The notes: generated by a model not told the origin, from the sequence alone. Positions 29,575-56,663 are shown, counted from the first letter of the stretch. The stretch is 64,000 bases of DNA from an uncultured Alphaproteobacteria bacterium (GCA_934216505.1 CAKQBW010000003.1:7084-71083); one strand, 5' to 3'. A program made the numbers and translations.

Positions 29575-29626
29575 TGGATTTCACGCCTTCTTTCCGGGAA
29601 AAGTATATACGATTTTATGTCAAAAA

Positions 29627-30424: not shown

Positions 30425-30453
30425 TTTTTTTCCCTTTGTGCTAGCATACGATT

Positions 30454-31113
30454 ATGAAAAATAAAAAAATATTCTTTTTCGCTTTATTATCCCTTGTTTT
30501 CAGCCAAAAAGCAAGTGCTTTTTGTGAGTCGATGGCCACGCGGGTTTATATTGATATGATGCCTGGAAATCCCACCTATATTACCACGCGTTCTCGTCAA
30601 GATTTTATGGCGTCCTCCACTCAAAAAATTTCACCCAACACTTTGGGATTGACGGTGGCTAAATTGACGATCCAAGGACGGCCCGATCCTATTATAGATG
30701 TCGTTTCCGAAAATGGCTTTATGTGTGCGGGGTTGAAAACGATTCGTTTTAAAATGGGGTATGATACTGGGGCGATTCAAGTTTTTATTGATAAAAAATA
30801 TCCCCGTCATTCTTGCGAATATGAAGTCATTAAAAAACATGAAAATTATCATGTTCAAGTCGCTCAACAAGCCATGAAGTTTTTTAAGCCTGATGTGGAA
30901 AAAAGGATTTACGATAGTATTGCCCAGTTGCGCCCCAAAAAAGTAGCCACGGTGGAGGAATATCAACAAGAAATAGAGCGGCAATATCAAAAAATTATTC
31001 AGGATTTAAAGCCCTTAATTCAACATATCAATGAAGTTATTGCCGAAAAAAACTATGAAATAGATACTCCTGAATCCTATCGAGCCACTACCGAATTGTG
31101 TCAAAATTGGTAA
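30454..31113 (+). CDS. Secreted protein with an HExxH motif (DUF922 / predicted Zn-protease-like)
   Basis: Signal peptide ...SQKASA, then HENYH within EYEVIKKHENYHVQV. Confidence 0.45.
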   Translation: MKNKKIFFFALLSLVFSQKASAFCESMATRVYIDMMPGNPTYITTRSRQDFMASSTQKISPNTLGLTVAKLTIQGRPDPIIDVVSENGFMCAGLKTIRFKMGYDTGAIQVFIDKKYPRHSCEYEVIKKHENYHVQVAQQAMKFFKPDVEKRIYDSIAQLRPKKVATVEEYQQEIERQYQKIIQDLKPLIQHINEVIAEKNYEIDTPESYRATTELCQNW

Positions 31114-32082: not shown

Positions 32083-32109
32083 AGCACCCTCCCCCCCTGT
32101 TCAAGGACT

Positions 32110-32700
32110 TTATTCAATACAACAATCTACCGCCTTACGCACTACGGCTTTCAACTTTCCCAAAACACCCGTTGCCACAGGGGCGGAAACAACTGCATTT
32201 TTCTTTTTGGCGGGCATTTCTTTATGAGTCAAAGAGGCCACCTCTTTTTGAACTTCCTCTAAGGAATCTACTTTCCATGAAATGTCTTTGGCATCCACCA
32301 AATTCATGTTCAAGCCCCAAAATAAACAATATAAATCATACGCTTGATTAAATAATTCATAGGCCTTTTCTTTATGCCCCATGGATTGTTGCTTGGTCCC
32401 CACTTCCATCAAACGCATGCTAGCCGATAATAAATGTTTGGAAATACACCACACTTCCCCTTCATAACTGGGAATAATTTGAAGCATCAAATTCTTGCGC
32501 AATTCACGCACCTCCTGCACCAAATCATAAAAACTGTTCTTTCCCGTTTTTGCCCCAGAAAAAACCAAATGTTCCTCTATGGAAATTAAATTCATAATCG
32601 CTATTGTTAAATCTTGGTCCGAAGACAAATCTTTGGGATTCTTCTTCTTTGTCGCGTCAATGCGTTCCACAAATTCTTTGACTGATGCTACTTTTTTCAT
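32110..32700 (-). CDS. Hypothetical soluble helical protein ending in DCCIE
   Basis: Intact 196-aa ORF immediately downstream of the 32710-33246 membrane protein. No family recognised. Confidence 0.4.
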   Translation of the reverse strand: MKKVASVKEFVERIDATKKKNPKDLSSDQDLTIAIMNLISIEEHLVFSGAKTGKNSFYDLVQEVRELRKNLMLQIIPSYEGEVWCISKHLLSASMRLMEVGTKQQSMGHKEKAYELFNQAYDLYCLFWGLNMNLVDAKDISWKVDSLEEVQKEVASLTHKEMPAKKKNAVVSAPVATGVLGKLKAVVRKAVDCCIE

Positions 32701-32709
32701 GTTCTCCTC

Positions 32710-33246
32710 CTAATTTAAAATAAGTACTTCTTTGCATTCGCACAAACTACCGCCCCAGAAAATGCAACAAACCAAGGCGTCTAATAACAAAGGCACCACC
32801 ACTTTTTCAAAAGGAAAGTGCGCATGCCCGCCGTTTTTTTCCTTAAGCCACGCATACAAATGCACCCCTGAAATATGTGCTACCGCCCCACAAATGGCCG
32901 CCATTAAAAAAGAATCCACATAAACAAAATTCCAATGCAAACGGGGTTTATATTCCAAATCCTTTAAATAGACAAACCCAATAGAGGAAATGGCAATCAA
33001 CATTAAAATTTTATCCCGCATCCAAAAATGCCAATTTCTTTTATCAAAAAACTTCATCAGGATATAGCCCACAATACTCATCAAAGCCCCCGATAAAACC
33101 CCAATAACTTCTATTTTCACTCCCATTTTATCGGCCACCACCAACAACAGACCAATCGCCGCAGGACAAATTGCTGTACAGGCTTGGGCAAAAACACGGT
33201 TGGCCAGCAACAAAGAAAACGCAAAAACAAATAATTTTTTCATCAA
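32710..33246 (-). CDS. Hypothetical membrane protein with terminal Cys motifs
   Basis: Signal or TM segment, then CTAIC near the N-terminus. Four or five TM segments. The C-terminus is LVCCIFWGGSLCEC. Confidence 0.45.
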   Translation of the reverse strand: MMKKLFVFAFSLLLANRVFAQACTAICPAAIGLLLVVADKMGVKIEVIGVLSGALMSIVGYILMKFFDKRNWHFWMRDKILMLIAISSIGFVYLKDLEYKPRLHWNFVYVDSFLMAAICGAVAHISGVHLYAWLKEKNGGHAHFPFEKVVVPLLLDALVCCIFWGGSLCECKEVLILN

Positions 33247-33303: not shown

Positions 33304-33939
33304 TTATTGACTCACCCAAATCACCCGTGCCACCCATGACACCTCCGACATTTTCAATACCACATCTTCACATTTGGGGTTCAAACTTTTTAATTCCAAT
33401 AAACACGCCGATTTATGAATCAATTCCTTGACCATAATTTCACCTTTGACAGTACGTACTACCACCCGATCAAACTTACGAATTTCCGCATCAGGGGCCA
33501 CAATCAATTTATTCCCGTCCCGATAAACAGGTTCCATACTTTCGCCCGATACCTCCAGCGCATAGACCCGTTGATTTAAGGCAAACGGAAATTCCACAGC
33601 GTCCCAATCGTCTGATAGAATAGGCCCCCCTTGAGCATCAAAATATCCGTCCCGTCCCGCTTTGGCCAACCCCATCAAAGGAATCATATTTTTGGGGGCT
33701 GGACACGGCTGGCCCGCCAACGCCATGAATTCAAAGACAGTGGTATTTGTCGCCTGTAAAACCTTATTCATACTTTCCGTGGAAGGCCATCTTTTCCGCC
33801 CATCGGCCCCAATGCGTTTTGATTTATTAAAACTGGTGGGATCTAACCCCGCTTTCATCGCCAATGCCGACAAAGAAAGCCCCTTAAATTCGGCTAATTT
33901 CTCAATCCCCGTCCAGATTTCATTGTAAGAGAGTTGCAT
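33304..33939 (-). CDS. CI/LexA-like repressor (XRE HTH + S24 peptidase domain)
   Basis: HTH GLSLSALAMKAGLDPTSFNKSKR. The S24 catalytic context is VSGESMEP, with a downstream Lys (KGEIMVKEL). It is divergent from the phage genes, and I chose the ATG at 33939. Confidence 0.8.
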   Translation of the reverse strand: MQLSYNEIWTGIEKLAEFKGLSLSALAMKAGLDPTSFNKSKRIGADGRKRWPSTESMNKVLQATNTTVFEFMALAGQPCPAPKNMIPLMGLAKAGRDGYFDAQGGPILSDDWDAVEFPFALNQRVYALEVSGESMEPVYRDGNKLIVAPDAEIRKFDRVVVRTVKGEIMVKELIHKSACLLELKSLNPKCEDVVLKMSEVSWVARVIWVSQ

Positions 33940-34099
33940 TTTTAATTTTTCCTTTCTTTCTCTTTTTAGTTGTATTTTCTTTTTACTCTTTTTTAGAGAG
34001 AATGTCAATAGGATTTTTTTCTTATTTTTGTCTTGACATTCCTAAAAAAATATGTTAGTTCTTGTTTTGTTCTTATTTTAACAAAGGGAGGAAACAAAA

Positions 34100-34471
34100 A
34101 TGAAGAACTTTTACAAATCAACAATAGATACACGCACCACAACGCCTTTTACTTCTTCTGAAGAAGCCTGGTTTTGGTATTGTCTTTGTGAAAAATTAGG
34201 CTTTCAAAGAGCCCGCTCTGGTGATTCGCGCGTTGCCCGTCCCTGTGAATCATCCGATATTGCGCTATCGGTCAAAAAACTATTCCGACAAGGTCTTTTA
34301 AAACCAGAACACATCAAAGTTTTATCTAAGTATGGCTTTGAACAAGTCCCACCCCACCCCCATTTCGGCGACACCCCACGCATCTGTCAAATTTGGAAAG
34401 AAGCCTTGCAATTTTTAGAATCTCTTTTGCGCCAAAAAGGAATCGTTTATAGTTTGTTGGGTGCCCTATGA
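34100..34471 (+). CDS. Phage early protein, function unknown (possible small DNA-binding regulator)
   Basis: GGAGG Shine-Dalgarno sequence; 123 aa. The C-terminal LKPEHIKVLSKYG weakly resembles a sigma region-4/LuxR-type HTH. I could not verify this. Confidence 0.4.
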   Translation: MKNFYKSTIDTRTTTPFTSSEEAWFWYCLCEKLGFQRARSGDSRVARPCESSDIALSVKKLFRQGLLKPEHIKVLSKYGFEQVPPHPHFGDTPRICQIWKEALQFLESLLRQKGIVYSLLGAL

Positions 34472-34869
34472 TTACAACAATTTATCCCTGTGCCTATCGG
34501 TATCCTTTTGCCTATGTTGGATTTGGGGGAAATCGGACCCGTTGGTGGACAAAATTTTTAAAAAAAGGCTTTTATCATTGTTTATTGATTTTGGGAAATG
34601 GACACGAATGGGTCTTGATTGATCCCGTCGCCCATTACACCGATTTAATGGTGATAAAAAAAACAAAGGTGTTGGCTTTTTTCCAAGAAAAAGGGTACCG
34701 ATTTATTCGCACGACCCCCCAGATTCCCACAAAAGTTATTTTGCACTTGCGCCCTTTGACTTGCGTTGAGGTGGTGAAACGCTTTTTGGGGATTACCCAC
34801 CCGTTGATTTGGACCCCTTTTCAACTTTATTTACACCTTAAATCCCCAAAAAAGGAAAATTTTCCTTGA
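34468..34869 (+). CDS. Phage early protein, function unknown
   Basis: 133 aa. The start overlaps the previous stop (ATGA). No family recognised. Confidence 0.4.
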   Translation: MITTIYPCAYRYPFAYVGFGGNRTRWWTKFLKKGFYHCLLILGNGHEWVLIDPVAHYTDLMVIKKTKVLAFFQEKGYRFIRTTPQIPTKVILHLRPLTCVEVVKRFLGITHPLIWTPFQLYLHLKSPKKENFP

Positions 34870-34894
34870 CAAATGAAAAATTTTGTGTTATAAT
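34866..34894 (+). promoter_or_regulatory. Consensus sigma70 promoter with extended -10 (late-operon promoter)
   Basis: TTGACA (34866-34871), a 17-nt spacer ending in TGT, then TATAAT (34889-34894). Confidence 0.75.
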
Positions 34895-34925
34895 GCAATT
34901 CAGTTAAACGCTCATAGTGTGTCTA

Positions 34926-34960
34926 AAGGCTTTCTGATGAATTTCAGGAAGCCTTTTTTT
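34926..34960 (+). terminator. Leader intrinsic terminator between the late promoter and the portal gene
   Basis: AAGGCTT (34926-34932) pairs with AAGCCTT (34949-34955), with inner CTGA/TCAG pairing. The T-run extends to 34960, and the portal ATG is at 34994. Confidence 0.65.
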
Positions 34961-34993
34961 CAATTTAAAGTTGTATCAAAAAAAGGAGAAAAA

Positions 34994-36448
34994 ATGCCCG
35001 ACATCCCTACACTTTATCAAGACTATAAAAAAGCCTGTGCCCTACGCAGCCATTGGGAAAGCACTTGGCAAGAATGCTATGCCTATGCCTTGCCCCAACG
35101 GGAAACTGTTTTTCAACCCAGTGCCAGCAAAATTCCCACCCTGTACGATGCGACCGCTATGGACGCCACGGACCAACTGGGGGCGTTAATGCTTTCCGAA
35201 TTGACACCCCCTTGGTTGGAATGGTTTCATTTAACCGCAGGTAGCCAACTTTCCGAAGAAGAAAAAGTCAAAATCGCCCCAGTGATGAATCAAATTTCTA
35301 TGGCGTTAAAAAACAATTTAGACCGTTCTAATTTTGCCAGCGAAATTCATCAATGTTATTTGGATTTAATTACTTTGGGGACAGCGTGTTTATTGTTTGA
35401 AGAAGCCCCTGTGGGTAGTTCTTCTTGTTTTCGTTTTACCGCTTTACCCTTGAATGAAGTGTGTTTAGGCGAAGGCCCCTGTGGTAAATTGGATAAAGTG
35501 TTCCGTTGTTTTACCATGGACGAAGCCACTTTTATCGCCCGTTATGGATTGGACAAATTGCCCCCTCAACAAAACGATAAAAAGCAGCCCCTCCGCCTGA
35601 TAGAAGCCCTGATTCCCCGCCTGAAAGGGGGATATGATTCTTACACCTTTTTACACCCAGATGACCAGCCTCTCTCAGCAACAAAGGAGTCCCCTTTCCT
35701 CCTGAAACAGGCGTATTACAGCACCTCGCCGTTTGTTGCTTTCCGCTGGTTGAAAGCCCCGGGGGAAGTCTATGGCCGTTCCCCTGTCATGAAGGCGTTG
35801 CCTGATATTAAGACCGCCAATAAAGTTGTGGAATTGATTTTGAAAAACGCCACAATTTCCGTGACAGGTATTTGGTTAGCCGAAGACGATGGTGTGCTCA
35901 ACCCCGCCACCATCAACTTGACCCCGGGTGCCATTATTCCCAAAGCCGTTGGGTCTAAAGGACTCACTCCCTTGGAGGCCCCAGGTAAATTTGATGTGTC
36001 CCAGCTAGTCATTAAAGACTTACGGGAACACATTCGCCATGCACTTTTGGGCGATAAATTAGGGACCGTTTGCGATAATGCCAAAATGACCGCCACCGAA
36101 GTTTTAGAGCGCAGTGAAGAAATGATCCGTATCTTAGGGGCGACTTATGGCCGATTGCAATCTGAATTGCTGACCCCTTTAATCAACCGTGCCCTAGCCC
36201 TTTTACGCAAGCGGGGAGAAATTCCTGAAATCTTTTTGGACGGACAAATTTTAACGGTTTCCTATAAATCGCCCCGAGCCGAAATTCAAGCCCGCAAGCA
36301 AGCGCAAGATGCCCTCAGTTGGTTAAACGCCATCAAGGGCTTAGGCGAAAATGCACTCACCCAACTGGATACCGCCAAAATCATGCGATGGATTGGGGAA
36401 AAATTGGCTCTGCCCGCTGACTTTATCAAAGAAAGTGTTGTCCCATGA
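34994..36448 (+). CDS. Portal (head-to-tail connector) protein, podovirus type
   Basis: N-terminus LYQDYKKACALRSHWESTWQECYAYALPQRE, about 484 aa, first gene of the structural block. The ATG at 34994 has an AAGGAGA Shine-Dalgarno sequence. Confidence 0.7.
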   Translation: MPDIPTLYQDYKKACALRSHWESTWQECYAYALPQRETVFQPSASKIPTLYDATAMDATDQLGALMLSELTPPWLEWFHLTAGSQLSEEEKVKIAPVMNQISMALKNNLDRSNFASEIHQCYLDLITLGTACLLFEEAPVGSSSCFRFTALPLNEVCLGEGPCGKLDKVFRCFTMDEATFIARYGLDKLPPQQNDKKQPLRLIEALIPRLKGGYDSYTFLHPDDQPLSATKESPFLLKQAYYSTSPFVAFRWLKAPGEVYGRSPVMKALPDIKTANKVVELILKNATISVTGIWLAEDDGVLNPATINLTPGAIIPKAVGSKGLTPLEAPGKFDVSQLVIKDLREHIRHALLGDKLGTVCDNAKMTATEVLERSEEMIRILGATYGRLQSELLTPLINRALALLRKRGEIPEIFLDGQILTVSYKSPRAEIQARKQAQDALSWLNAIKGLGENALTQLDTAKIMRWIGEKLALPADFIKESVVP

Positions 36449-36642
36449 AAGAAGTCATTTACGCCCTGATTCGTTTAAGCACGACAGTTGATGGTAAAAC
36501 GGTTTTAAATTATTTGCGGCGCAAGGTTTATGGACGCATTTTATCGCCCGAAGCCAGCACCCAAGAACTGTGGTATTTGGAAGGCCAACGCGCCTTTATT
36601 GCCACAATGGATAAAATGATTGAACAAGGAAAAACTTTATAA
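36445..36642 (+). CDS. Small phage protein, function unknown
   Basis: 65 aa. The start overlaps the portal stop (ATGA). Confidence 0.4.
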   Translation: MKEVIYALIRLSTTVDGKTVLNYLRRKVYGRILSPEASTQELWYLEGQRAFIATMDKMIEQGKTL

Positions 36643-36653
36643 GGAGAAATTCT

Positions 36654-37298
36654 ATGACCCCAGAAACACCTCAAATTCCCGAAAAATTCACCGACAAAGA
36701 CGGTCAATTAAAAACACAAGATTTATTAAAATCTTATTTGGCTTTGGAAAAAAAATTGAGTGCCCCCAAAATTACCGATAAAGGCACTCTGCCCACCAAA
36801 CCCGAAGAATATAAAATCGTTCCCAAAAACGATTTGATTGTTGTGGATAAACAAGTCAATCAACGCCTCTTTGAGTTGGGCCTCACCAACGAACAAGCCC
36901 AAGGCATTTACGATTTAGCCGCCGACATTATCTTGCCTCAACTGGAATCTTTTGGGGAAGAAATCAGTGCCGACAAAGAATTAAAAGAATTAGAAAAAGA
37001 ATTTGGGGGCTTGGAACAATTTAACACGATTGCCCGCCAATTATCCGCTTGGGGCGAAAAAAATTTAGACGCCAAAACTTTTAATTCTCTTTCTTGCTCA
37101 AAAGACGGGATTTTAACCCTTTACAAAATGATGCAGGAAAAACAAGAAGTGCCCGTTTCACGGGAAAAAAGTCAGCCCCAAAATATAGATGACGAACTCA
37201 CTTTACGCCGATTGATGCAGGACCCCAAATACTGGAAAGATCAAGATCCTGAATTAGTTCGGCGTATTGAGCAAGGATTTAAACGCCTTTACGGATAA
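36654..37298 (+). CDS. Putative scaffolding protein
   Basis: It sits between the portal and capsid genes. It is acidic, helical and Lys/Glu-rich; 214 aa. Confidence 0.45.
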   Translation: MTPETPQIPEKFTDKDGQLKTQDLLKSYLALEKKLSAPKITDKGTLPTKPEEYKIVPKNDLIVVDKQVNQRLFELGLTNEQAQGIYDLAADIILPQLESFGEEISADKELKELEKEFGGLEQFNTIARQLSAWGEKNLDAKTFNSLSCSKDGILTLYKMMQEKQEVPVSREKSQPQNIDDELTLRRLMQDPKYWKDQDPELVRRIEQGFKRLYG

Positions 37299-37435
37299 AT
37301 CCTTGTCCTGTGGATAAGCCCCGTTGGGGCCCCACAAACCCTTCCTTTTTAATCGGCGAAGATTTTTCTTCATAACCCTTTATTCAAGGCCTTTTATCGT
37401 ATTCACTTTTTTACTTATTACAAGGAGAATAAATT

Positions 37436-38290
37436 ATGACCGATTCAACCGCTATTGATGCGTCTTTTATCAAACACTTTGAAGCCGATGTGCATACAGC
37501 CTATCAGCAACAAGGATCTAAATTAAAATCTACTGTCCGCTTTAAAGACGGTATTACAGGATCCAGCACAACTTTCCAAGTGATTGGCACGCAAACAGCC
37601 AACCAAAAATCTGCCCGTAATGCGCAACTGACACCCGCCGCTGTGTCCCACGCCCCCGTGGAATGCACTTTGGCCGATTGGTATGCCGGCCAATGGGTGG
37701 ATAAGTTGGACGAATTAAAAGTGGGCCACGATGAACGCAAAGTCTTGGCCACCGCAGGGGCTTATGCTTTGGGACGCAAAACAGATGCCCTGATTATCAA
37801 TGCCTTGGGCAATGCCACACAAACAGCCGGCAAAAATACAGACCCTTTAACAAAAGAACGTATTTTGGCCGCCTTTAAGACACTCAACACCAACGATGTC
37901 CCTGATGATGGCGAACGCTATGCATTGGTGGGGCCCGCTCAATGGAATCAATTATTGAGTTTAGATGAATTTTCCAACGCCAACTATGTGGGCGATGCAC
38001 ACCCCCTTTTGACGGGTTCAGAATCCCGCAAATGGATGGGCATCAATTGGATTATGCATACGGGCCTTCCCACACAAGGGTCCGGCGATAGCGCCACAAC
38101 CACTTGCTTTATTTACCACAAATCTGCCATCGGTTTAGCCGCAGGGCAAGACATCACGACAGACATTACATGGCACGGAGATTATGCCGCCCACTATGTC
38201 AATAATATGATGAGTCAAGGAGCGTGCTTGATTGATGCCAAAGGCGTGGTCAAAATGGTGTGTTTAGATAGCGTACCTGCCTCTGTCTAA
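37436..38290 (+). CDS. Putative major capsid protein
   Basis: Its position after the scaffold-position gene, a strong AAGGAGA Shine-Dalgarno sequence, and a terminator directly downstream. 284 aa. Confidence 0.6.
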   Translation: MTDSTAIDASFIKHFEADVHTAYQQQGSKLKSTVRFKDGITGSSTTFQVIGTQTANQKSARNAQLTPAAVSHAPVECTLADWYAGQWVDKLDELKVGHDERKVLATAGAYALGRKTDALIINALGNATQTAGKNTDPLTKERILAAFKTLNTNDVPDDGERYALVGPAQWNQLLSLDEFSNANYVGDAHPLLTGSESRKWMGINWIMHTGLPTQGSGDSATTTCFIYHKSAIGLAAGQDITTDITWHGDYAAHYVNNMMSQGACLIDAKGVVKMVCLDSVPASV

Positions 38291-38310
38291 CCTTCAGATT
38301 TTTCCTCAAG

Positions 38311-38340
38311 AGAGGTCCTTTTGCAAGGGCCTCTTTTTTC
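38311..38340 (+). terminator. Intrinsic terminator directly after the capsid gene
   Basis: AGAGGTCC pairs with GGGCCTCT (one G-T wobble), followed by TTTTTT. Confidence 0.65.
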
Positions 38341-38363
38341 TATTTTTTCAGAAAGGACCTTTT

Positions 38364-38933
38364 ATGACAAATACAAAAATTGATTTGTGTTCCCAAGCCT
38401 TGGTCAAACTGGGGGCAAAAAGTATTGCCTCTATGGACGAAAACACCACAGAAGCCATGGTCGCCCAACAACTTTATGAACCCACTTTGCGCCATTTGCT
38501 CAGTTCTTATCCTTGGCGTTTTGCCTTGCGTCAAGAATGTTTGGGCCGATTAGATGAAACACCCCTGACCGATTATCCCTATGCCTTTCAAATTCCCAAC
38601 GATTGCTTGCGTATTTTATCGGCGGGACAAAACACAAAAAGTAGCGGATTAATTTACCGTTTAGTGGGCCAAAAATTATATGCCAAAGTCCCTGAGGTTG
38701 TTTTAACTTATCTGAGTCGTCCTGAAGAAAATACTTTTCCGCCTTTTTTCAATCAGGCTTTAACGGATACTTTGGCGGCACAATTTTGTCTGCCTTTGAC
38801 GGAAAGTTCTGCCCGCACAGATTATATGAGTAAATGCGCCACTGAGTCTGTTTCCAAAGCCCGTTTAATAGACAGCCAACAATCTGTTCATTCTTGTTTT
38901 CAAGATTTTTCCTTAATTGAGGTACGTTCATGA
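38364..38933 (+). CDS. Putative head-tail adaptor (T7 gp11-like tail tubular protein A)
   Basis: 189 aa. The N-terminus IDLCSQALVKLGAKSIASMDENTTEA...LY...R..LLS.YPWRFA fits the adaptor pattern and gene position. Confidence 0.55.
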   Translation: MTNTKIDLCSQALVKLGAKSIASMDENTTEAMVAQQLYEPTLRHLLSSYPWRFALRQECLGRLDETPLTDYPYAFQIPNDCLRILSAGQNTKSSGLIYRLVGQKLYAKVPEVVLTYLSRPEENTFPPFFNQALTDTLAAQFCLPLTESSARTDYMSKCATESVSKARLIDSQQSVHSCFQDFSLIEVRS

Positions 38934-40855
38934 CCAACCAATTTACCGCTAAAACAAATTTTACCGCTGGCGAACTGTCCCCTGATTTATTGGGACGTGT
39001 GGATTTAAATGCCTATGCCAGTGGGGCCTCGTGTTTGGAAAATGTCTTTATTGAACCCACTGGAGGCATTCATCGCCGCCCTGGGTTGCAACATGTCCAA
39101 ACCCTATCAGGCAAAGGCCGTTTAATGAGTTATGAAGCCGACAGCCAAAACGCTTTTTTATTCATTTTACAAAACCAACAAACATTGATTTACAAAAATG
39201 ATGTCCTGATTCAAACACTTTCTACCCCTTGGACAGAAAAACAAATCAATCAAATCAATTGGTGTTGCGTGCCCAACGGGGTTATCTGTGTGCATCAAGA
39301 AGTCCCCCCGCAACATTTTACTTTAAAAGACGCTGTATGGCAAGTAGTTCCCTTTCAATGCGCCACCGACCAAGGGTGTGTGCAAATGCCCTATCACCGC
39401 TTTGAAAACGAAACAACCACGCTTTCCAGTTCGGGGTGTTCAGGGAATGTCGTTTTAACCGCCAGCGATGATTTATTTTCAGCGCACCATTTGGGACAAA
39501 CTTTTAAATTAGCCGATGGCTATGTTTCCATTACCACCATCAATACCCCTAAACAGGCTAAAGCCACTGTCTTGAAAAAATTATTAAATGAAGATGATGT
39601 CGGGGCAACCACAGTTTTACAACCAACCCGTTATTGGGGGGAACCCGCTTGGAGTGCTACACGTGGGTGGCCTAGTTGCGCCACAACCTATCAATCCCGA
39701 TTGGTTTTTGCGGGCAGCAAAAGTTTGCCCAATACTTTGTGGTTTAGCCAAAGTAATGATATTTACAATTTTGAAGAAGGGACAGCCTTAGACAATGAAG
39801 CCATTAGTTTTTCCCTGTTATCCGATGGGGCCAACAAAATTTGTGCTTTATTTGCGGGGCGCCACCTCCAAGTTTTCACCACCAGCGCCGAATGGATGGT
39901 CTGTGGGGCCCCTTTAACGCCGGCCTCTATCCAAGTCAATCGCCAAACGCAAGTTGGGTCCGATGATACGCATTCTATTCCCCCAATTGGCATAGACGGG
40001 GCCACGATTTTTGCCGCCGCCAATGGTAAAGAAATTCGTGAATTTTTGTTTTCGGATTTAGAGGGAATTTATCAGGCCACAGACCTTTCTTTATTGGCGC
40101 ATCACATGATTCACAAGCCCATTGAAATGGCCTATGATAAGTATTTACGCCAAGCCTATATCGTCATGCAAGACGGGACTTTGTCTGTGCTGACCAGTTT
40201 CAGAGCCGAAGATTTGCAAAGTTGGACGCACCAAAAAACAGAGGGGCAATTTTTAAGTGTCGCTTTATGCCAAAAGCAAGCCTACTTTATCGTTCAACAA
40301 AACAATACTTTTTATTTGGAAAAATTCAATGAAAACTTGCACACGGATAAAGGCCTTTTACAAACCGCTCAAACGCCACAAAAAACTTGGGGCAATTTGG
40401 ATATGTTAGAGGGGCAAGAGGTGCAATTGGTCGCCGATGGGCGCGTTCAATTTCCGCAAATTGTCCAAGGGGGAAGTGTGACTTTGGATATTGCCTGTCA
40501 AACATTAGAGGCGGGGTTGGCTTTTACTCATAAAATACAGCCTTTACCCCCTGTTGTCGGGGCCCATAACGGACCCGCCCCCGCCACTTCAGCCCGATTG
40601 GTCAAAGGGATCTTTCGCATCGTCAATACGCAAAGCATTGAAATAGACACCGGCTCAGGTTTTCATCAAGAACTGACCTCAAGTCTTTCTCAATATACTT
40701 TAGATGCTCCCAGCCAAAAACAAACTCGGGATATTATCGTCCGAGGATTAGGGTGGAAACGCAACCCTCTATCCCCCCTTTGGACCATCCAAAGTGCTCT
40801 GCCTTTACCTTTTCAACTTGTGTCCGTCACCAACGATATTAAAATAGGAGAATAA
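38930..40855 (+). CDS. Putative tail nozzle (T7 gp12-like tail tubular protein B)
   Basis: 641 aa, immediately after the adaptor gene with an overlapping start and stop. The call rests on position and size only. Confidence 0.45.
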   Translation: MTNQFTAKTNFTAGELSPDLLGRVDLNAYASGASCLENVFIEPTGGIHRRPGLQHVQTLSGKGRLMSYEADSQNAFLFILQNQQTLIYKNDVLIQTLSTPWTEKQINQINWCCVPNGVICVHQEVPPQHFTLKDAVWQVVPFQCATDQGCVQMPYHRFENETTTLSSSGCSGNVVLTASDDLFSAHHLGQTFKLADGYVSITTINTPKQAKATVLKKLLNEDDVGATTVLQPTRYWGEPAWSATRGWPSCATTYQSRLVFAGSKSLPNTLWFSQSNDIYNFEEGTALDNEAISFSLLSDGANKICALFAGRHLQVFTTSAEWMVCGAPLTPASIQVNRQTQVGSDDTHSIPPIGIDGATIFAAANGKEIREFLFSDLEGIYQATDLSLLAHHMIHKPIEMAYDKYLRQAYIVMQDGTLSVLTSFRAEDLQSWTHQKTEGQFLSVALCQKQAYFIVQQNNTFYLEKFNENLHTDKGLLQTAQTPQKTWGNLDMLEGQEVQLVADGRVQFPQIVQGGSVTLDIACQTLEAGLAFTHKIQPLPPVVGAHNGPAPATSARLVKGIFRIVNTQSIEIDTGSGFHQELTSSLSQYTLDAPSQKQTRDIIVRGLGWKRNPLSPLWTIQSALPLPFQLVSVTNDIKIGE

Positions 40856-40858
40856 AAA

Positions 40859-41335
40859 ATGGAAGTCGCCTTGATTGCCACCGCCGCCACCGTTATCGGG
40901 TCGGCCTATTACACCAAAAGAAATTCAGATTTACAGGCCAAAGCCATAAAGCAATCTAATTCTTATGCTCAAGCCAGTGCCGCCAACCAAAACCGTCAAG
41001 CCCAAATCGCTTTAGCCGAACAAAAACGCAAAAACAAAAATTTGTTGGCGCAACAACAGGCAACCTATAAAGCGTCCTTAAGTGCAGGGGGCGTCAATAC
41101 CAATCATGGGTCCAGCCAAACCTATCTCAACGCTTTACAACGGGAATATGACATGGAGGACAAGTATTTGGATAAACAAGCCAAAATCTCCTCAGACGCT
41201 ATTTTGAACAGTTTAAATCGTACCAATTCATCCAACTTATTAAAATTAAATGCCCTCAACAACAGCCAACAATCTAATCTCTATACTTCCTTGGGGAATT
41301 TGGCCAATGGGGTGGGACGGACCCTGATTAAATAA
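40859..41335 (+). CDS. Small virion-associated protein (N-terminal TM, Gln/Asn-rich)
   Basis: N-terminal hydrophobic segment VALIATAATVIGSAYY, followed by low-complexity Q/N/A sequence. Confidence 0.35.
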   Translation: MEVALIATAATVIGSAYYTKRNSDLQAKAIKQSNSYAQASAANQNRQAQIALAEQKRKNKNLLAQQQATYKASLSAGGVNTNHGSSQTYLNALQREYDMEDKYLDKQAKISSDAILNSLNRTNSSNLLKLNALNNSQQSNLYTSLGNLANGVGRTLIK

Positions 41336-41349
41336 AGGAGCCTTCCCCA

Positions 41350-41607
41350 ATGATGGCCCCTAAAGAGTGGGCGGTTTTTTTGGAAAAAGCCGTCCAAAGT
41401 TATCAGACTTTTGCCAGTTCGCCCCCGCCGATGGACGCCAAAGAATTTAACGCCTATCATGGGGCCTGCAAAAGTGCCCTGATGCATATTGCTTTGTTGG
41501 AAAAATTGATTGAACTCAACCCTGAAAAACCCCCTGATTCTTTTCCTTTGGACGAATGGATTCAGACCGCACGACAGGAATTAAAAAATGAAAACGACCT
41601 TTCTTGA
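41350..41607 (+). CDS. Small phage protein in the small-terminase position
   Basis: 85 aa, overlapping the start of the large terminase gene. Its size and position match T7 gp18. No motif support. Confidence 0.35.
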   Translation: MMAPKEWAVFLEKAVQSYQTFASSPPPMDAKEFNAYHGACKSALMHIALLEKLIELNPEKPPDSFPLDEWIQTARQELKNENDLS

Positions 41608-42985
41608 ATTTGTTTGGATTTGGGATAAGATGCATCATCTAAGCTTGCCCAACCATCATAAAAAAATCGGCCGATTCTTATCACATTTGGCCCATCAAAA
41701 AGAACGTCGGTATGCTCTGTTAATGGCCTTTCGGAATTCGGGAAAATCCACTTTAATGGGATTGTTTTGTGCGTGGGTATTAAATCAAGATCCCAACTTG
41801 AAAGTCTTGATTTTATCCGCCGACACAGACTTGTCCCGCAAAATGGCCACGCACATTCAACGCATTTTAGAGCAACACCCGTGTTGTGTGGGCCTGAAAC
41901 CACCGGCCCCCAAAGAATGGGCGGGCGGGCGCTTTACCGTGCAACGCACTTGTGCCGACCGAGATCCGTCTGTGTTGGCCAAAGGATTGTTCAGCAATTT
42001 GACAGGCAGCCGGGCCGACATTATTATTTGCGATGATGTTGAGGTTCCCAAAACAGCTGACACCGCCGCAAAGCGGGCCGACATGCGTTTAAAATTAAAT
42101 GAGTTAAACTATATTTTGGCCCCCAATGGCTTGATGTTGTATGTGGGAACGCCCCATGCCAAAGAAACCATTTATGAGGTACCCGATAAATGGGAAAAAT
42201 TGATTCTTCCCATTTGGGACGATCAAGGGCGACCAGCGTGGCCTGAACGTTTTTCTATGGAAAAAATCAACCAAATTCGGACCAACACCAGTGCCGCCAA
42301 ATTTTCAAGTCAGATGTTATTAAAACCCATGGCCCCCGAAGAAAGGCGTTTAGATGAAAGTTATCTCACCATGTATGCTGAGGATTTAGATTATTACGAG
42401 GCAAACAACAGCGCCGTCTTGACTTTAGCGGGAAAAAAATTAGTCTCGGGGTCGGCTTGGTGGGACCCCGCCTTTGGGCGAGTACGAGGGGATAGAAGTG
42501 TGATTGCCTGTGTTTTTACCGATGAAGAAGGCCATTTATATGTGCATCAAATCCGCTATCTGAAAGTCCCCGATGGGACGGAAGCCACGCACTATCAATG
42601 CCAACAGGTTGCCCAGTTTTTACAGGAAAACTTTTTGCCTGCCCTCAACATTGAAACCAACGGGATTGGGCAATTTTTACCCGCTTTACTCAAGCAAGAA
42701 TTGGCCCGTCAGCGGATGGGGTGTGCGGTGATAGAAAAAAACGCCCATCAAAACAAAGTGGAACGCATTTTGGGCGCATGGGAAGCCCCGCTTTTTAACC
42801 GCCAAATCAGCATACACAAAAGCGTTTGGGACAGTCCTTTAATCCAAGAAATGCAAGACTTTAACACGCATGGCAACACCCATGATGATGGATTAGATGC
42901 CGTGGCGGGGTGTTTATTGAGTGAGCCTGTGCGCTTAAAAAAACAGCCTGATTTTTACAAAAGACGCCCCCTATGGCGTCCTTAA
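41588..42985 (+). CDS. Terminase large subunit
   Basis: Walker A-like FRNSGKST, Walker B IIICDDVE, and a C-terminal nuclease-size domain ending ...HDDGLDA. Confidence 0.7.
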   Translation: MKTTFLEFVWIWDKMHHLSLPNHHKKIGRFLSHLAHQKERRYALLMAFRNSGKSTLMGLFCAWVLNQDPNLKVLILSADTDLSRKMATHIQRILEQHPCCVGLKPPAPKEWAGGRFTVQRTCADRDPSVLAKGLFSNLTGSRADIIICDDVEVPKTADTAAKRADMRLKLNELNYILAPNGLMLYVGTPHAKETIYEVPDKWEKLILPIWDDQGRPAWPERFSMEKINQIRTNTSAAKFSSQMLLKPMAPEERRLDESYLTMYAEDLDYYEANNSAVLTLAGKKLVSGSAWWDPAFGRVRGDRSVIACVFTDEEGHLYVHQIRYLKVPDGTEATHYQCQQVAQFLQENFLPALNIETNGIGQFLPALLKQELARQRMGCAVIEKNAHQNKVERILGAWEAPLFNRQISIHKSVWDSPLIQEMQDFNTHGNTHDDGLDAVAGCLLSEPVRLKKQPDFYKRRPLWRP

Positions 42986-43001
42986 ACAAAAGGAAAATAA
43001 A

Positions 43002-43409
43002 ATGACTCAAGAAGAAATTTTTGCCAAAACTATTTTCGGCGAAGCACGGGGCGAATCATTAGCGGGCCAAGAAGCCGTCGCCAATGTCATTCTCAATCGT
43101 GTGAAGTATGCCCAACACCACCCCCATATTTGGTGGGGAAAAACAATTCAGGAAGTTTGTTTGAAACCCAAGCAATTTTCTTGTTGGAATAAAGATGATA
43201 AAAACTATCGGCTTTTATTGGAAAACTTGAATGATAATCCCCTTTATCAAATCTGTTTGCGGGTGGCCAAACGGGCGCAAGCGGGCTTAATCCCAGACAA
43301 CACCCATCACGCCACCCATTATCACGCCGTGAATTGTTCCCCCGTTTGGGCCCGCCATTTGGTTCCTTGCGCCGAAATCGGACGACATTTATTTTATGTT
43401 TTACCTTGA
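43002..43409 (+). CDS. SleB-type cell-wall hydrolase (endolysin)
   Basis: FGEARGES..GQEAVANVILNRV...FSCWN... pattern of the SleB hydrolase_2 family. Confidence 0.75.
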   Translation: MTQEEIFAKTIFGEARGESLAGQEAVANVILNRVKYAQHHPHIWWGKTIQEVCLKPKQFSCWNKDDKNYRLLLENLNDNPLYQICLRVAKRAQAGLIPDNTHHATHYHAVNCSPVWARHLVPCAEIGRHLFYVLP

Positions 43410-43423
43410 TTCAGGAGGCCGTC

Positions 43424-43735
43424 ATGCCCACACAAAATTTAACCATTGAAATTGGAAAACTTATGTCTTCCGTTCACACCTTGCAAGAATCCTTAAGCGA
43501 ATTAAAAAAAGAAGTGGATATTTGGGGGCAAAAAATTGCCTCGGTCCATGATGAACTGATTCACTTTATGGGAAATGTCCAAAACAAAAACACCTGTCAA
43601 ATTTTACATGACAAAATAAAAAATGAATTTGTTTTGCGTCAAGAAATTGCCCCGATTAAAAACTTGGTCGGGGTCATTGTTGCCGCCACAGGAACCGCTC
43701 TCGTGGTGGCTTTGTTAAACCTAATCTTAAAATAG
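43424..43735 (+). CDS. Small membrane-anchored coiled-coil protein (holin/spanin candidate)
   Basis: AGGAGG Shine-Dalgarno sequence and ATG at 43424. C-terminal TM segment LVGVIVAATGTALVVALLNLIL. Confidence 0.45.
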   Translation: MPTQNLTIEIGKLMSSVHTLQESLSELKKEVDIWGQKIASVHDELIHFMGNVQNKNTCQILHDKIKNEFVLRQEIAPIKNLVGVIVAATGTALVVALLNLILK

Positions 43736-43743
43736 GAGAAAAA

Positions 43744-43923
43744 ATGCTTTCATTTATTATCACCCATTTTGAAGACTTTATCACCGCTTTGACTTCCATG
43801 GTCACAGGAGCCAGTATCTTAACAGCCCTCACCCCCACGCAAAAAGATGATAATGTTGTCAATAAAATTAAAAAAGTACTCAACTTGTGCGCTTTGAATG
43901 TCGCCAATGCCAAAGCCGCCTAA
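43744..43923 (+). CDS. 59-aa small membrane protein (holin candidate), absent from the ORF track
   Basis: My own translation: MLSFIITHFEDFITALTSMVTGASILTALTPTQKDDNVVNKIKKVLNLCALNVANAKAA. AGGAGA Shine-Dalgarno sequence 7 nt upstream. It falls below the 60-aa cutoff. Confidence 0.5.
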   Translation: MLSFIITHFEDFITALTSMVTGASILTALTPTQKDDNVVNKIKKVLNLCALNVANAKAA

Positions 43924-43926
43924 AAA

Positions 43927-43947
43927 AGGGGGAAAAACTTTCCCCCT
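43927..43947. terminator. Bidirectional hairpin terminator between the phage module and pilR
   Basis: AGGGGGA pairs with TCCCCCT around a 7-nt loop. An A-run lies 5' and a T-rich tail 3', so the hairpin sits after the stop codons of both convergent genes. Confidence 0.65.
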
Positions 43948-43955: not shown

Positions 43956-45074
43956 TTAGGCCCCCAAGCCCATGCCTTGCACCATTTGGTCTTGCATGAC
44001 GAAGGTCCCCCAGACAACCCAACCAATCACGGCTGAAATCATCAAAATCGCTATTGCATTTAAAATTTCTGCTTGCTTTGAAATCGTCCGAACAGATTCT
44101 TCCAACCATGAATTCGCCAGATTTTCCAACGCTTCAGGAAAGGTATCTAATTCAGAATAAATCCGTAAGTCCCCCACGACTTCTTCATCAGGAAAACCCA
44201 ACTTGGTGTGATACAGAGCCTCCCCCAAGTTATCCCCGTTATTGATAAACAGCAACGCCCGATTCAACCGGTATTTTAAATATGGGGTAGTTTCATCGCT
44301 GATTAAAGAACGCACCGCTTTAGACACAGGCATCCCCGCCCGCACCAAAGCCGACAATGCCAACAACCAACTGACCCCAATAAAGCCCCGATAAATGGAC
44401 CACGGGGGATACTTATCAAATGTCGCCCGCCCTGCCCCTTTCCAATAGGGAAAAGTAATCATCACGCAGAGCACGATAACGGGGATAATAGAAAACAACA
44501 AAATCGGGTGTTGATCCACAAAGATAGATAAATCCACCAAAGAAGCTGCCACGCCTTTCCATTGTAAGTTTGGCACCGCATCTACCATAGGGGGCACCAT
44601 GAATTTTGCTACCCCCCAAATCAACAAAGCCACCATACACATCAAAAACAACGGGTAAGCCACCGCCCCCCAAACCAATTGACGCATTTTATTCATGCCT
44701 TCCACCACACGTACCGTATGTTGTAAAGCCAATTCCAAGTTCGCCACATCCCCCACAGACAGCAATAATAATTCTGTGGAAGGGGCCCAACCCCGCAACG
44801 CTTCCGCAAAAGTTTGACCGTTTCGGATTTGGGTCATCCAACTGGCCACCGCCATCGCCATACTTTCGGTGGGACTTTTGCCGTCTTTTGAAGCGATCTG
44901 ATACAACCGTTCCAAAGCGTCCATCAAAGAAAATCGGTTCTTTAACAAAGACGCCAATTTCCGATACATTTCCAATCGGTCTTCCGCATGCAACCGCACC
45001 ATAAAGCGGGCATACATCAAATTCAATGTATCCATAATTCCATCGTTTAATTTTATTTCATTTTTTTTATCCAT
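43956..45074 (-). CDS. pilR: Type IVb pilus inner-membrane platform protein (GspF/PilC family, R64 PilR-like)
   Basis: About 370 aa with the GspF-like arrangement of helical domains and 3 TM segments. It directly follows the GspE-type ATPase gene. Confidence 0.7.
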   Translation of the reverse strand: MDKKNEIKLNDGIMDTLNLMYARFMVRLHAEDRLEMYRKLASLLKNRFSLMDALERLYQIASKDGKSPTESMAMAVASWMTQIRNGQTFAEALRGWAPSTELLLLSVGDVANLELALQHTVRVVEGMNKMRQLVWGAVAYPLFLMCMVALLIWGVAKFMVPPMVDAVPNLQWKGVAASLVDLSIFVDQHPILLFSIIPVIVLCVMITFPYWKGAGRATFDKYPPWSIYRGFIGVSWLLALSALVRAGMPVSKAVRSLISDETTPYLKYRLNRALLFINNGDNLGEALYHTKLGFPDEEVVGDLRIYSELDTFPEALENLANSWLEESVRTISKQAEILNAIAILMISAVIGWVVWGTFVMQDQMVQGMGLGA

Positions 45075-45091
45075 GGTCTTTTATCCTCAGG

Positions 45092-47062
45092 TTATATCAA
45101 GTTAGGTTGATTCAATAAACCACACCACCGTTCTACTTCTTCTATATCAAATTCCCCTTTTAACATGTGTTCAATGGCGGCTTCTTTCAATGTACGACCG
45201 TGCAAATCTGTAATCCAATAATTTAACGCCTTTTGGGATTCCCCCCTTAACATCAAATCCAAAAAAGTGGTATCAGGCAGAATAAATTCCGCCACCGCTG
45301 ACCGACCACTCACTCCGTGAAAATCACATTCCTCACACCCAGGACCCCGCAAATAGCATTGTTCCAAAGCAATATCCCCATAGGCTTCACGCAACCGTTG
45401 GACAGAGGGGTGATTTAAACACTCTGTTGCCTTTAAACGGCAATGCGGACACACCCGTGAAAGCAACCGTTGCGCCAACATACCCCGCATAATAGAGGGA
45501 TCCTGTAATTTAAAATCTTCCACCCCAATATCTTTAAGCCGCAGCAACACCGCCGATGCAGTATTGGCGTGAATCGTGGACCACACATTGTGTCCCGAAA
45601 GGGCCCCCCGAAAGGCCAAGTCCGCCGCTGACAAAGTCCGAATTTCCCCAATCATCAACGAATCAGGGTCCGACCGCAACGCCGCCGACAGGGCTTTCGT
45701 AAATTCACGGTCCTTGGCTTCTTCCACCCCAGCGTTTGTCACAGGCATCTGACGGGCCCCAGGAATCGGATATTCGGGCGGGTCTTCCACCGTAATCAAG
45801 TTCGTTTCATAGTTGCGTTCTTTCAACATGGCAATCATGTTGCGTTGCAAGGTGGTGGATTTGCCTGAACCTGTCGGTCCAGATACCATCACAATGCCTG
45901 TGGGTAAAGAGCGCAGGTACCGAAACTGATCAATTTCAAATTGCCCAAAGCCCAAACTTTCAAGTGCTTTGTCCCCCACCGCCGCATTATCATCGGCGTA
46001 CAGCAAACGAATCACCACATAACGTGTTCCAAAGGCGATGGGGTTAAATTGCAACCGCAACCCCAAAACAGACTTTGGCAACACCAAGCGGCCCCCTGAG
46101 CCCCGTAAAGGTGTGCGACCTAATTTTTGAGCCGCCTGATATTCATTTTGCGCATAGTTGGAATCCGAAATATCCGCTGAAGCAAAGGCCGCCCGAACAA
46201 AACTTTCGCCCCATTCTTTGTTATATTCCATTTCCGTTTGCATCAACCCATTCACACGAAACATCACTGTCGTATGGTCCGCCACCACAATATGCACATC
46301 GGACACCCGATTCATGGCGGCCCGAGAAATAACGGTGACAAAGTCCCGTTGCATACGGGTTTGCTTTTGGGATTCTTCTGTACTAATGACCTCAGACGCT
46401 GAATGCACTTGTTCGGCATAATTATAAATGGCCGATAATTCCGCCACCGATACATACTCTGCCTGCCCAATCTGCAACCGCCTTTTTTTGGCCAAGTATT
46501 CAAAGCCCAACACCCGTCCATCAAAGCGATTTTCCGATACCACAAAAAACCGCCCATTGGAAAACAAAGCCAACAATTTGCGTGTTTCATCATTGACAGG
46601 GAAAGCCCCCGTCAGGGAAGTCATACATTCATTTCCATTATCGTACAGGTCTTTTAAAAAGTGAATAGAACTGTGGTCATTGGGGTCCATCTGGGATTCA
46701 GTGGTTGTCTGAGGTTGCGTAAAAGCCGATGGGTCTTCTTCCACTGTCAGTTTTGTTTCAGGGGTAATTTCTTCGGGCACAACCGCTGGCTTTTGTTCCA
46801 CAGGTGGGGGCGTATTTTCATATTCTTTCAGGGTATCCAAAGTTTCAGATAATTTTTTTTGAGGTGCCAAAATATCACTGGCTTGGGCCGTATCCGCCTC
46901 AGGCGTTGGCGTAGGAACAGCCCCCCGCTCCTGTGCCAATTCTGCCTTCTCCTCTGATGGTAAAATGGGTGGCTGAATCGGTGGATTGACCCCGTTCAAT
47001 TCCTCTGTTTGAGAAATTGAGTCCGTTTTTTGCGTCAAACCAACCTTATTTTGCTCATCCAT
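45092..47062 (-). CDS. pilQ: Type IVb pilus assembly ATPase (GspE/PilB family, R64 PilQ-like) with a long N-terminal extension
   Basis: Walker A SGPTGSGKSTT, Asp/His box regions, and a C-terminal tetracysteine (CPHC...CEEC). The N-terminal extension of about 130 aa is Pro/Glu/Thr-rich. Confidence 0.85.
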   Translation of the reverse strand: MDEQNKVGLTQKTDSISQTEELNGVNPPIQPPILPSEEKAELAQERGAVPTPTPEADTAQASDILAPQKKLSETLDTLKEYENTPPPVEQKPAVVPEEITPETKLTVEEDPSAFTQPQTTTESQMDPNDHSSIHFLKDLYDNGNECMTSLTGAFPVNDETRKLLALFSNGRFFVVSENRFDGRVLGFEYLAKKRRLQIGQAEYVSVAELSAIYNYAEQVHSASEVISTEESQKQTRMQRDFVTVISRAAMNRVSDVHIVVADHTTVMFRVNGLMQTEMEYNKEWGESFVRAAFASADISDSNYAQNEYQAAQKLGRTPLRGSGGRLVLPKSVLGLRLQFNPIAFGTRYVVIRLLYADDNAAVGDKALESLGFGQFEIDQFRYLRSLPTGIVMVSGPTGSGKSTTLQRNMIAMLKERNYETNLITVEDPPEYPIPGARQMPVTNAGVEEAKDREFTKALSAALRSDPDSLMIGEIRTLSAADLAFRGALSGHNVWSTIHANTASAVLLRLKDIGVEDFKLQDPSIMRGMLAQRLLSRVCPHCRLKATECLNHPSVQRLREAYGDIALEQCYLRGPGCEECDFHGVSGRSAVAEFILPDTTFLDLMLRGESQKALNYWITDLHGRTLKEAAIEHMLKGEFDIEEVERWCGLLNQPNLI

Positions 47063-47075
47063 TTTCCCGTCCGTT

Positions 47076-56662: not shown

Positions 56663-56663
56663 T

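Follow-up and report, generated by a model that had tools for sequence, protein, structure and literature searches.

A Probably Vertically Inherited T7-like Particle and Lysis Cassette in Gut and Rumen Alphaproteobacteria, a Candidate Gene Transfer Agent-like System

Introduction

To our knowledge, only a few gene transfer agents (GTAs) have been described, and nearly everything known about them comes from one siphovirus-derived lineage. PBSX is a domesticated, SOS-inducible particle that packages 13-kb pieces of host DNA, and capsid-forming phage-inducible chromosomal islands (PICIs) encode their own capsid, portal, and terminase without a fibre. Here, a stretch of 64,000 nucleotides from an uncultured Alphaproteobacteria bacterium (GCA_934216505.1, CAKQBW010000003.1:7084-71083), referred to as the window, was analysed for a ~10.6-kb cassette of phage head, tail, packaging, and lysis genes located at window positions 33304-43947 behind an S24-type repressor. 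The cassette is probably the remnant of a T7-like temperate podovirus that was domesticated, is inherited vertically, and is kept as a module for particle production and lysis, which would make it a candidate GTA-like (viriform) system.

In Caulobacter, the two-gene gafYZ operon is repressed by RogA, a protein with helix-turn-helix (HTH) and S24-like domains; GafY activates transcription, and GafZ is an antiterminator that is loaded at the -35/-10 palindrome and carries RNA polymerase past the terminator of the GTA cluster (PMC9632790, PMC11150451). The GafA protein of Rhodobacter binds to the GTA promoter in its -35/-10 region (PMC9638019). FpGTA of Faecalibacterium is a podovirus-like GTA-like element, whose 40-nm particles with 8.4-8.9 kb of DNA have been shown experimentally (PMC12946183).

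Likened by gene content, the cassette and FpGTA both belong to gut bacteria; FpGTA has a ~10.5-kb operon of short-tailed-phage-like genes for TerS, TerL, portal, scaffold, and capsid, is conserved across its genus, and does not propagate itself. However, the host of FpGTA belongs to the Firmicutes, and its fibre, receptor-binding protein, and lysis genes occupy a second locus of 5.5 kb, whereas the cassette contains its lysis genes and has no known fibre locus. An earlier note on this DNA held that a podovirus-type GTA would be new, but with FpGTA already published (PMC12946183) the category is a known one. A literature search found no description of the cassette, and what is new, as far as we know, is a T7-type cassette in Alphaproteobacteria, its regulatory chain in cis, and a late-promoter motif in common with the clusters of the RcGTA type.

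If this reading is true, the cassette would represent a second alphaproteobacterial GTA lineage, built from T7-type parts. Its spread in uncultured gut and rumen Alphaproteobacteria, with 434 clusters (90% identity) of the element-specific protein u133, would have a bearing on horizontal gene flow in gut microbiomes. Moreover, the contiguous 10.6 kb could serve as a test bed for antitermination-controlled particle production, and they raise the question of how a fibre-less, core-less podovirus stub would deliver DNA.

Organization of the Cassette

Every open reading frame (ORF) of the cassette was listed and scanned against Pfam, PHROGs, and NCBIfam. The gene content and order that the earlier note had read behind the S24 repressor are borne out, the repressor lying on the minus strand and every other gene on the plus strand (lengths in amino acids, aa):

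33304..33939, minus strand: CI-like repressor with HTH and S24 autopeptidase domains, 211 aa (PF00717 2e-18; phrog_4 2e-22)
34003..34072, no strand: divergent early control region, with two -35 elements and the GTTCTTGTTTTGTTC box
34100..34471, plus strand: u123, small protein predicted to be all helical, which may activate or antiterminate the late genes (dN/dS 0.04-0.07; four helices in the AlphaFold2 (AF2) model)
34468..34869, plus strand: u133, alpha/beta protein, second early gene (dN/dS 0.07-0.13; 434 homologue clusters)
34853..34963, plus strand: late promoter, leader, and intrinsic terminator (motif AGGAAAATTTTCCTTGAC; hairpin 34925-56)
34994..36448, plus strand: portal (T7 gp8-like), 484 aa (PF12236 2e-117)
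36445..36642, plus strand: Bbp19-like small protein, 65 aa (PF25181 2.6e-6)
36654..37298, plus strand: scaffold (T7 gp9-like) (PF05396 3.5e-8)
37436..38290, plus strand: major capsid protein (PF19821 4e-72; phrog_3437 1e-76; dN/dS 0.02-0.08)
38308..38343, plus strand: intrinsic terminator in the gap between capsid and adaptor (hairpin and T run)
38364..38933, plus strand: adaptor, tail tubular protein A (gp11-like) (phrog_394 6e-45)
38930..40855, plus strand: nozzle, tail tubular protein B (gp12-like) (phrog_376 1.5e-119)
40859..41335, plus strand: u158, 158 aa, with an N-terminal hydrophobic segment and a Q/N-rich coiled region (dN/dS 0.02-0.09)
41350..41607, plus strand: u85, 85 aa, small terminase by position (gp18-like), overlapping TerL (phrog_31793 3e-12)
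41588..42985, plus strand: large terminase TerL (phrog_38 3e-84; weak matches to T7 RNaseH-like and GpA ATPase domains)
43002..43409, plus strand: SleB-type cell-wall hydrolase (Hydrolase_2, endolysin) (PF07486 1.5e-20; phrog_938)
43424..43923, plus strand: two small membrane proteins of 103 aa (C-terminal transmembrane segment) and 59 aa (phrog_9685)
43927..43947, no strand: bidirectional terminator closing the cassette

The ATGA overlaps noted previously at 34468, 36445, and 38930 are all real. The portal, which had been read from TTG 34883, starts instead at ATG 34994 behind an AAGGAGA ribosome-binding site, and 34883-34993 is occupied by the late promoter, leader, and terminator. The most likely start of the repressor is ATG 33939, which gives 211 aa in agreement with its homologues, the ORF reaching on to TTG 34008; that of the first membrane protein is 43424. 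Both terminal membrane proteins are kept at the cassette end in most of the related loci and are candidates for holin or spanin. By its position, u158 is a candidate small internal or tail-associated protein; a search with hidden Markov models placed its homologues directly after the nozzle in the relatives L036, L037, L043, and L210, and homologues of u85 lie upstream of TerL in L042, L043, and L210.

The earlier note had also described integration, replication, fibre, and core genes as missing, and none was detected by the family scans of the cassette ORFs or in the annotated flanking ORFs (window 27417-33246 and 43956-52620, and a 1030-aa ORF at 21120-24212, which is a glycosyltransferase), the remainder of the window being covered by ORF listing. 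Direct-repeat searches in the window and four other loci agree with its report of no att-like repeats, finding only short repeats at chance level across the cassette borders. The GC content of the cassette is in line with that of its flanks. Integration of the dif/Xer type was considered but gained no support, neither repeats on the flanks nor a switch in GC skew being seen at the cassette.

Whereas an autonomous T7-like podovirus encodes polymerases, primase/helicase, gp14-16, and gp17, the cassette has only equivalents of gp8-9-10-11-12-(small)-18-19. The nearest phages by nozzle similarity are podoviruses of 34-44 kb, several of them temperate, and the nozzle is 24-30% identical to tail tubular protein B of temperate podoviruses (tblastn). 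Homologues from portal to TerL occur in the same order in temperate T7-like podoviruses (YeP4-6 and HTVC019P-type pelagiphages), in L210, and in the Skermanella locus L043; however, the temperate phages also have an integrase, DNA polymerase, primase/helicase, large internal proteins, and a fibre, and the cassette has none of these. Yersinia phage YeP5 encodes an integrase, helicase, DNA polymerase, repressor, and primase, and its nozzle is followed by a 148-aa protein and then by proteins of 160, 708, 430, and 841 aa. The high-GC alphaproteobacterial relative L210 (IMG/VR UViG_3300020593_000114, GC 0.70) contains, in this order, u123, u133, the promoter motif, a leader terminator, portal, scaffold, capsid, adaptor, nozzle, u158, a 779-aa protein, a TerS-like protein, and TerL; the 779-aa protein is a gp17-like tailspike (7665-10004 in motif orientation) with a Phage_T7_tail N-domain and a pectate-lyase-like domain. 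YeP5 and L210 show what the gut cassette has lost: since u158 is directly followed in the gut cassette by the gene in the TerS position, a fibre or tailspike and large internal proteins have not simply been overlooked but are truly absent from it. The L210 contig begins at u123.

A minimal autonomous temperate phage that borrows the replication and integration machinery of its host could also be compact and carry a repressor, separate early and late operons, and genes for lysis, as the cassette does. Nevertheless, such a phage would have to manage without a replication origin protein, a recombinase, an att site, or a receptor-binding protein, all of them functions that the closest phage relatives carry in their 35-44 kb, and the cassette co-diverges with its hosts rather than being distributed sporadically. 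This alternative seems extremely improbable.

Conservation and Inheritance

A scan of one genome per GTDB species gave 43 loci, nearly all of them in metagenome-assembled genomes (MAGs) of gut or rumen Alphaproteobacteria. Homologues of the capsid number in the thousands, and the complete cassette, from the S24 gene to the last membrane protein, is colinear and free of insertions in ~38 species-level MAGs (tblastn and ORF clustering), protein identity to the window versions falling to ~40-60%. The S24 repressor stands beside the cassette in every locus whose sequence extends to this point (60-88% identity, dN/dS 0.03-0.06). No integrase, excisionase, primase/rep gene, fibre gene, or att repeat was found in any of the ~38 loci (the att-repeat search covering the window and four loci). 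The Bbp19-like gene is absent from the loci of flank type B; since it is missing in one subclade (L008-L011, L014, L015, L017, and L018), with only ~100 nt left between portal and scaffold, it appears to be dispensable.

The ratio of nonsynonymous to synonymous substitution (dN/dS, Nei-Gojobori), the check proposed in the earlier note, is 0.02-0.15 for all cassette genes, including those of unknown function, which is at or below the 0.04-0.21 of the host flanks; the exception is u85, with values up to 0.53 in one closely related pair. The flanks consist of host housekeeping genes (Lnt, the F1 ATP synthase operon, CorA, a SixA-like protein, an M48 hydrolase, a response regulator, and type IV pilus genes); in the window, CorA and two unknown genes lie upstream and a type IVb-pilus-like cluster downstream. 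Of the expectation that the same cassette would recur at the same locus, the recurrence held across the ~38 species, whereas the flanking genes vary by subclade, sometimes in inverted orientation, with flank types that follow the cassette phylogeny. Pairwise cassette identity tracks that of nine host flank genes (Pearson r 0.76-0.99), these genes being used as the host proxy in place of genome trees. A megablast search with the cassette found no near-identical DNA in the INPHARED phage collection, and IMG/VR held only fragments of the cassette, with no free genome and no contig bounded by direct terminal repeats (DTR). Thus, a particle cluster without replication, integration, or excision functions is under purifying selection across speciation, with the flank genes standing for the host, and its inheritance looks vertical, as expected of a GTA.

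The cassette could instead be an ordinary decaying cryptic prophage, or a recent deletion derivative of one, given that it derives from a phage and has shed many phage functions. A possible disruption of a single gene is seen in only 3-4 loci, all in MAGs, where assembly errors are common: the split or stop-containing genes are u123, u85, and terL in L029 (4197-4546, 11962-13181), the nozzle in L038, and the capsid in L024, and they may be pseudogenes or errors of assembly. However, 14-15 genes are retained in unchanged order even between species with protein identities of only 40-60%, all except u85 at dN/dS ≤0.15, together with the SOS box, the promoter, and the two terminators. Conservation, dN/dS, host tracking, the few disruptions, and the lack of a free genome together rule out ordinary decay and an assembly artefact in which a complete prophage continues elsewhere; the decaying or recently deleted prophage is accordingly regarded as very improbable. 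The view of the earlier note that the cassette is maintained is upheld by these data and by housekeeping flanks without mobility genes; among the three options that it left, a GTA-like particle system fits, the very recent deletion derivative is refuted, and the helper-dependent satellite is unlikely.

Such a satellite, or capsid-forming island, would package itself and rely on a co-resident phage or the host for excision, replication, and fibres. Like capsid-forming PICIs, the cassette has its own capsid, portal, and terminase and no fibre, its genomic context differs among subclades, and in one species pair (L012 and L013; cassette ~5860-16360, flanks 2140-5780) cassette dS is 0.14-0.38 compared with 0.5-1.4 for the flanks. 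This low dS hints at recombinational exchange between related species or at strong codon constraint. However, the integrase, att site, and replication module of a PICI are lacking in every locus, as is an excisionase, and the same results that exclude decay argue against a mobile satellite; flank types follow the cassette phylogeny, divergence tracks host genes, and IMG/VR is without a free genome or DTR contig. We consider the satellite improbable; it, the decaying remnant, and the mini-phage all fit the data poorly, and the reading as a domesticated, vertically inherited particle module is preferred.

Late Transcription

The late promoter follows directly after u133, with its -35 element at 34866-71, its -10 element at 34889-94, and an extended -10; TTGACA-17(TG)-TATAAT at 34866-34894 is a 12/12 match, in line with the perfect consensus claimed previously. 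AGGAAAAT(N2)TCC abuts the promoter on its upstream side, and a palindrome, CAWWTT...AAWWTG, lies between -35 and -10. After a conserved leader, a terminator hairpin (34925-56) with a T run is found, placed 57-72 nt downstream of the -10 element across loci. Promoter, hairpin, and T run occur in all 37 of 37 loci, with covarying stems whose sequences are unrelated between lineages, and the leader hairpin has a mean energy of -15.6 kcal/mol compared with -1.7 for shuffled controls. A second terminator between capsid and adaptor, scored as a hairpin of ≤ -8 kcal/mol with a T run, is present at 37 of 39 loci, and here too the stems differ in sequence. With two conserved terminators in place, the expression of tail, terminase, and lysis genes needs read-through, which implies antitermination.

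This layout resembles the lambdoid Q system (PR'-tR') and T7 T-phi, with a strong promoter, an intrinsic terminator within ~60 nt, and a regulator gene immediately upstream, and T7 also has a second terminator after its capsid gene. Unlike in lambdoid phages, no Q-family domain was detected, and the likeness of u123 to the Q21 fold is not significant. Each locus has a single copy of the late-promoter motif in the 10 kb to either side, and no second operon under its control was found there.

The Early Operon and Its Control

In the divergent early region, a leftward -35 element (TGTCAA) is located at 34003-08 and a rightward one (TTGACA) at 34033-38, and the GTTCTTGTTTTGTTC box at 34058-72 overlaps the -10 and start region of the rightward promoter. 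The 160-nt region is highly conserved; GTTC-N7-GTTC is invariant in 35 of 35 aligned loci, TGTCAATAGG is likewise invariant, and a weaker copy of GTTC-N7-GTTC lies near the -35 element. Elsewhere in the window, this pattern has two matches, neither of them in a promoter. GTTCN7GTTC is the published LexA box of Alphaproteobacteria (PMC3091678).

The repressor retains the Ala-Gly and Ser/Lys features of S24 peptidases. Its identification with the host LexA was considered and rejected, its score being 27 bits compared with the LexA equivalog cutoff of 111, with a match in the peptidase domain only. Whichever protein binds the box, DNA damage would be the expected inducing trigger.

The two early genes, u123 and u133, are obvious candidates for terminator read-through factors. 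No match was found for either in Pfam (single sequences and 30-member sets), NCBIfam, PHROGs, or PDB sequences, and Foldseek comparison of their models with PDB and BFVD gave none with E<0.2. The AF2 model of u123 (pLDDT 83) has four helices, and its Foldseek fold neighbours, none of them significant, are the Q21 antiterminator (TMq 0.43-0.46, E 1-6) and phage proteins annotated as RNA polymerase or sigma factors. A profile search of 1.84 billion representatives recovered 531 clusters of small unnamed proteins for u123, with no protein of GafA size among the matches. The model of u133 (pLDDT 80) has weak matches to papain-like cysteine peptidases (E>0.3), residues H37, C38, D52, C99, and E101 are invariant, and all of its homologues, which form 434 clusters at 90% identity, are unnamed; it may be a co-regulator or a papain-like enzyme.

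A Promoter Motif in Common with RcGTA-Type Clusters

Metagenomes and IMG/VR were scanned for the motif AGGAAAATNNTCCTTGAC (18 nt, 16 specified bases), initially in search of a second operon such as a fibre locus. Among the matches listed, most lie on high-GC alphaproteobacterial contigs, 0.3-1.3 kb upstream of a cluster of the RcGTA type (TerL or portal first) with TerL, HK97 portal, protease, HK97 capsid, the TIGR02215 connector, and a TP901-type tail protein. Such a cluster follows in at least 22 of the 48 metagenome loci with enough sequence and in ~38 of 68 IMG/VR matches. The low-GC metagenome and virome matches outside the cassette lack the leader and, among the matches listed, look like chance. 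The consensus of the RcGTA-type promoters is atAGGAAAATAaTCCTTGACagCGTgACGcTg..TAg.Gt, with a palindrome between -35 and -10. As a conserved signature upstream of these clusters in many high-GC Alphaproteobacteria, the motif is followed by a palindrome of the type CAGCGT-G-ACGCTG (loci L058-L132 and L174-L236; e.g., L072, 3003-8600), and in several loci a ycgN-like gene immediately precedes it; no description of this signature was found in the papers examined. The earlier note mentioned neither this common motif nor the SOS box of the early promoter or the two internal terminators.

A homologue of u123 lies just upstream of the motif in the high-GC contigs L123, L112, and L091 and in L210, accompanied in L123 by an S24 repressor. 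In layout, the cassette resembles the RogA-GafYZ system in its S24 repressor, two-gene operon, promoter, and terminators. It also resembles RcGTA and CcGTA in being a phage-derived head, tail, and packaging cluster without replication or integration genes, inherited with the host under purifying selection and ending in lysis, and in its AGGAAAATNNTCCTTGAC promoter motif with a palindrome between -35 and -10. However, the cassette has the T7-like gp8-9-10-11-12-18-19 order and matches T7-type families, whereas RcGTA consists of HK97-type siphovirus genes with a prohead protease and a long tail; the RcGTA-type set (HK97 portal, protease, and capsid, TIGR02215, TP901) is absent from it. It further differs from RcGTA and CcGTA in that its repressor and putative activators are encoded in cis, next to the cluster, that it has an SOS box and a repressor which keeps the S24 catalytic motifs, that no fibre, head-spike, or accessory loci are known for it, and that u123 and u133 match no named family.

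By analogy, the T7-like cassette may work like a RogA-GafYZ-controlled GTA with all of its regulators in cis. It is conceivable, although we put it forward with some doubt, that a second phage, a T7-like podovirus, was domesticated into a GTA on the same promoter and antitermination circuit as RcGTA, with u123 and u133 as compact counterparts or ancestors of GafZ and GafY and RogA-like repressors derived from phage CI. If so, the cassette would be the first GTA of the T7 type, its self-contained locus would be the smallest of any GTA, and it would offer a direct view of the origin of the Gaf circuit. The motif in common with RcGTA-type clusters would mean that the control module of the Gaf type has a longer history than the particles under its control and is more portable than they are.

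Proposed Mechanism and Function

In the resting state, the early promoter would be shut at the SOS box by the autocleavable CI-like S24 repressor, the host LexA, or both. DNA damage (RecA*) would lift repression and allow expression of the u123-u133 operon, whose products could then act at the late promoter, on the AGGAAAATNNTCCTTGAC upstream/-35 motif and the palindrome, and make RNA polymerase resistant to terminators. The polymerase would pass the leader and post-capsid terminators and transcribe the genes from portal through lysis. Procapsids could then assemble, TerS and TerL would perform headful packaging, adaptor and nozzle would close the head, and the lysin and membrane proteins would release the particles. 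Lacking the means to excise or replicate itself, the element must draw on the chromosome for the DNA that it packages, which could consist of random fragments or of processive headfuls that start from a site in or near the cassette. In this scheme, particle formation, the nature of the packaged DNA, the protein at the SOS box, the roles of u123 and u133, and the attachment of particles without a fibre are inferred. A fibre gene may lie at another locus, an arrangement known from RcGTA and FpGTA, or the particles may have a different purpose.

One such purpose would be that of a killer or altruistic-lysis particle of the PBSX or tailocin kind, which benefits kin by killing, by release of DNA or public goods, or by abortive defence, with packaging being incidental. 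SOS-type control, a complete lysis module, and the lack of a fibre and of ejection proteins for productive DNA delivery all suit this view, and PBSX-like defective prophages, which are chromosomal, SOS-inducible, and non-propagating, fill small heads with host DNA, and end in lysis of the cell that makes them, provide a precedent. However, the 28-kb PBSX element of Bacillus is of the myovirus type and kills with a contractile tail, whereas a podovirus stub without fibre or spike has no obvious means of killing. Moreover, purifying selection acts on portal, TerS, and TerL no less strongly than on the capsid, which argues that the packaging of DNA matters. A killing or lysis function is thus considered unlikely, and production of DNA-packaging, GTA-like particles remains the preferred reading.

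Several observations weigh against this preferred reading. Neither the cassette nor the 10 kb around it yielded a receptor-binding protein, and no second locus with the late promoter appeared among the metagenome matches listed; a fibre-less T7-type tail is not expected to adsorb, and the missing large ejection proteins gp15 and gp16 leave DNA delivery unexplained. The SOS box may serve as operator for the repressor of the cassette itself instead of being a site for host LexA, the fold matches of u123 and u133 are not significant, and their kinship with the sigma-like GafZ, with GafY, which resembles DnaA domain IV, or with Q is not established. In addition, cassette dS falls below flank dS in the L012/L013 pair, and the differences in flanks from subclade to subclade leave room for an occasional relocation or exchange by recombination. 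Finally, the loci counted are those of cassette-bearing genomes, and every copy comes from a MAG.

Genomic Surroundings

Downstream, a minus-strand cluster at 43956-51643 abuts the cassette and includes genes for T2SSF, a 656-aa T2SSE ATPase, a PilO-like protein, a secretin, and a TcpQ-like protein; this adjacency of pilus cluster and cassette is kept only in the closest subclade (flank type A). Upstream, two minus-strand genes, u196 and u178 (a membrane protein), lie at 32110-33246 between CorA and the repressor. With 74-85% identity and dN/dS of 0.03-0.07, u196 is more conserved than the adjacent CorA; since both genes are found only in loci of flank type A, they are probably host genes.

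The window also contains low-GC stretches at 9000-12000, 16000-19000, and 54000-59000 (0.31-0.36, compared with ~0.44 elsewhere in the window). Two of them adjoin tRNA genes (tRNA-Asp at 16302-16379 and tRNA-Ser at 58723-58811) and are possible islands.

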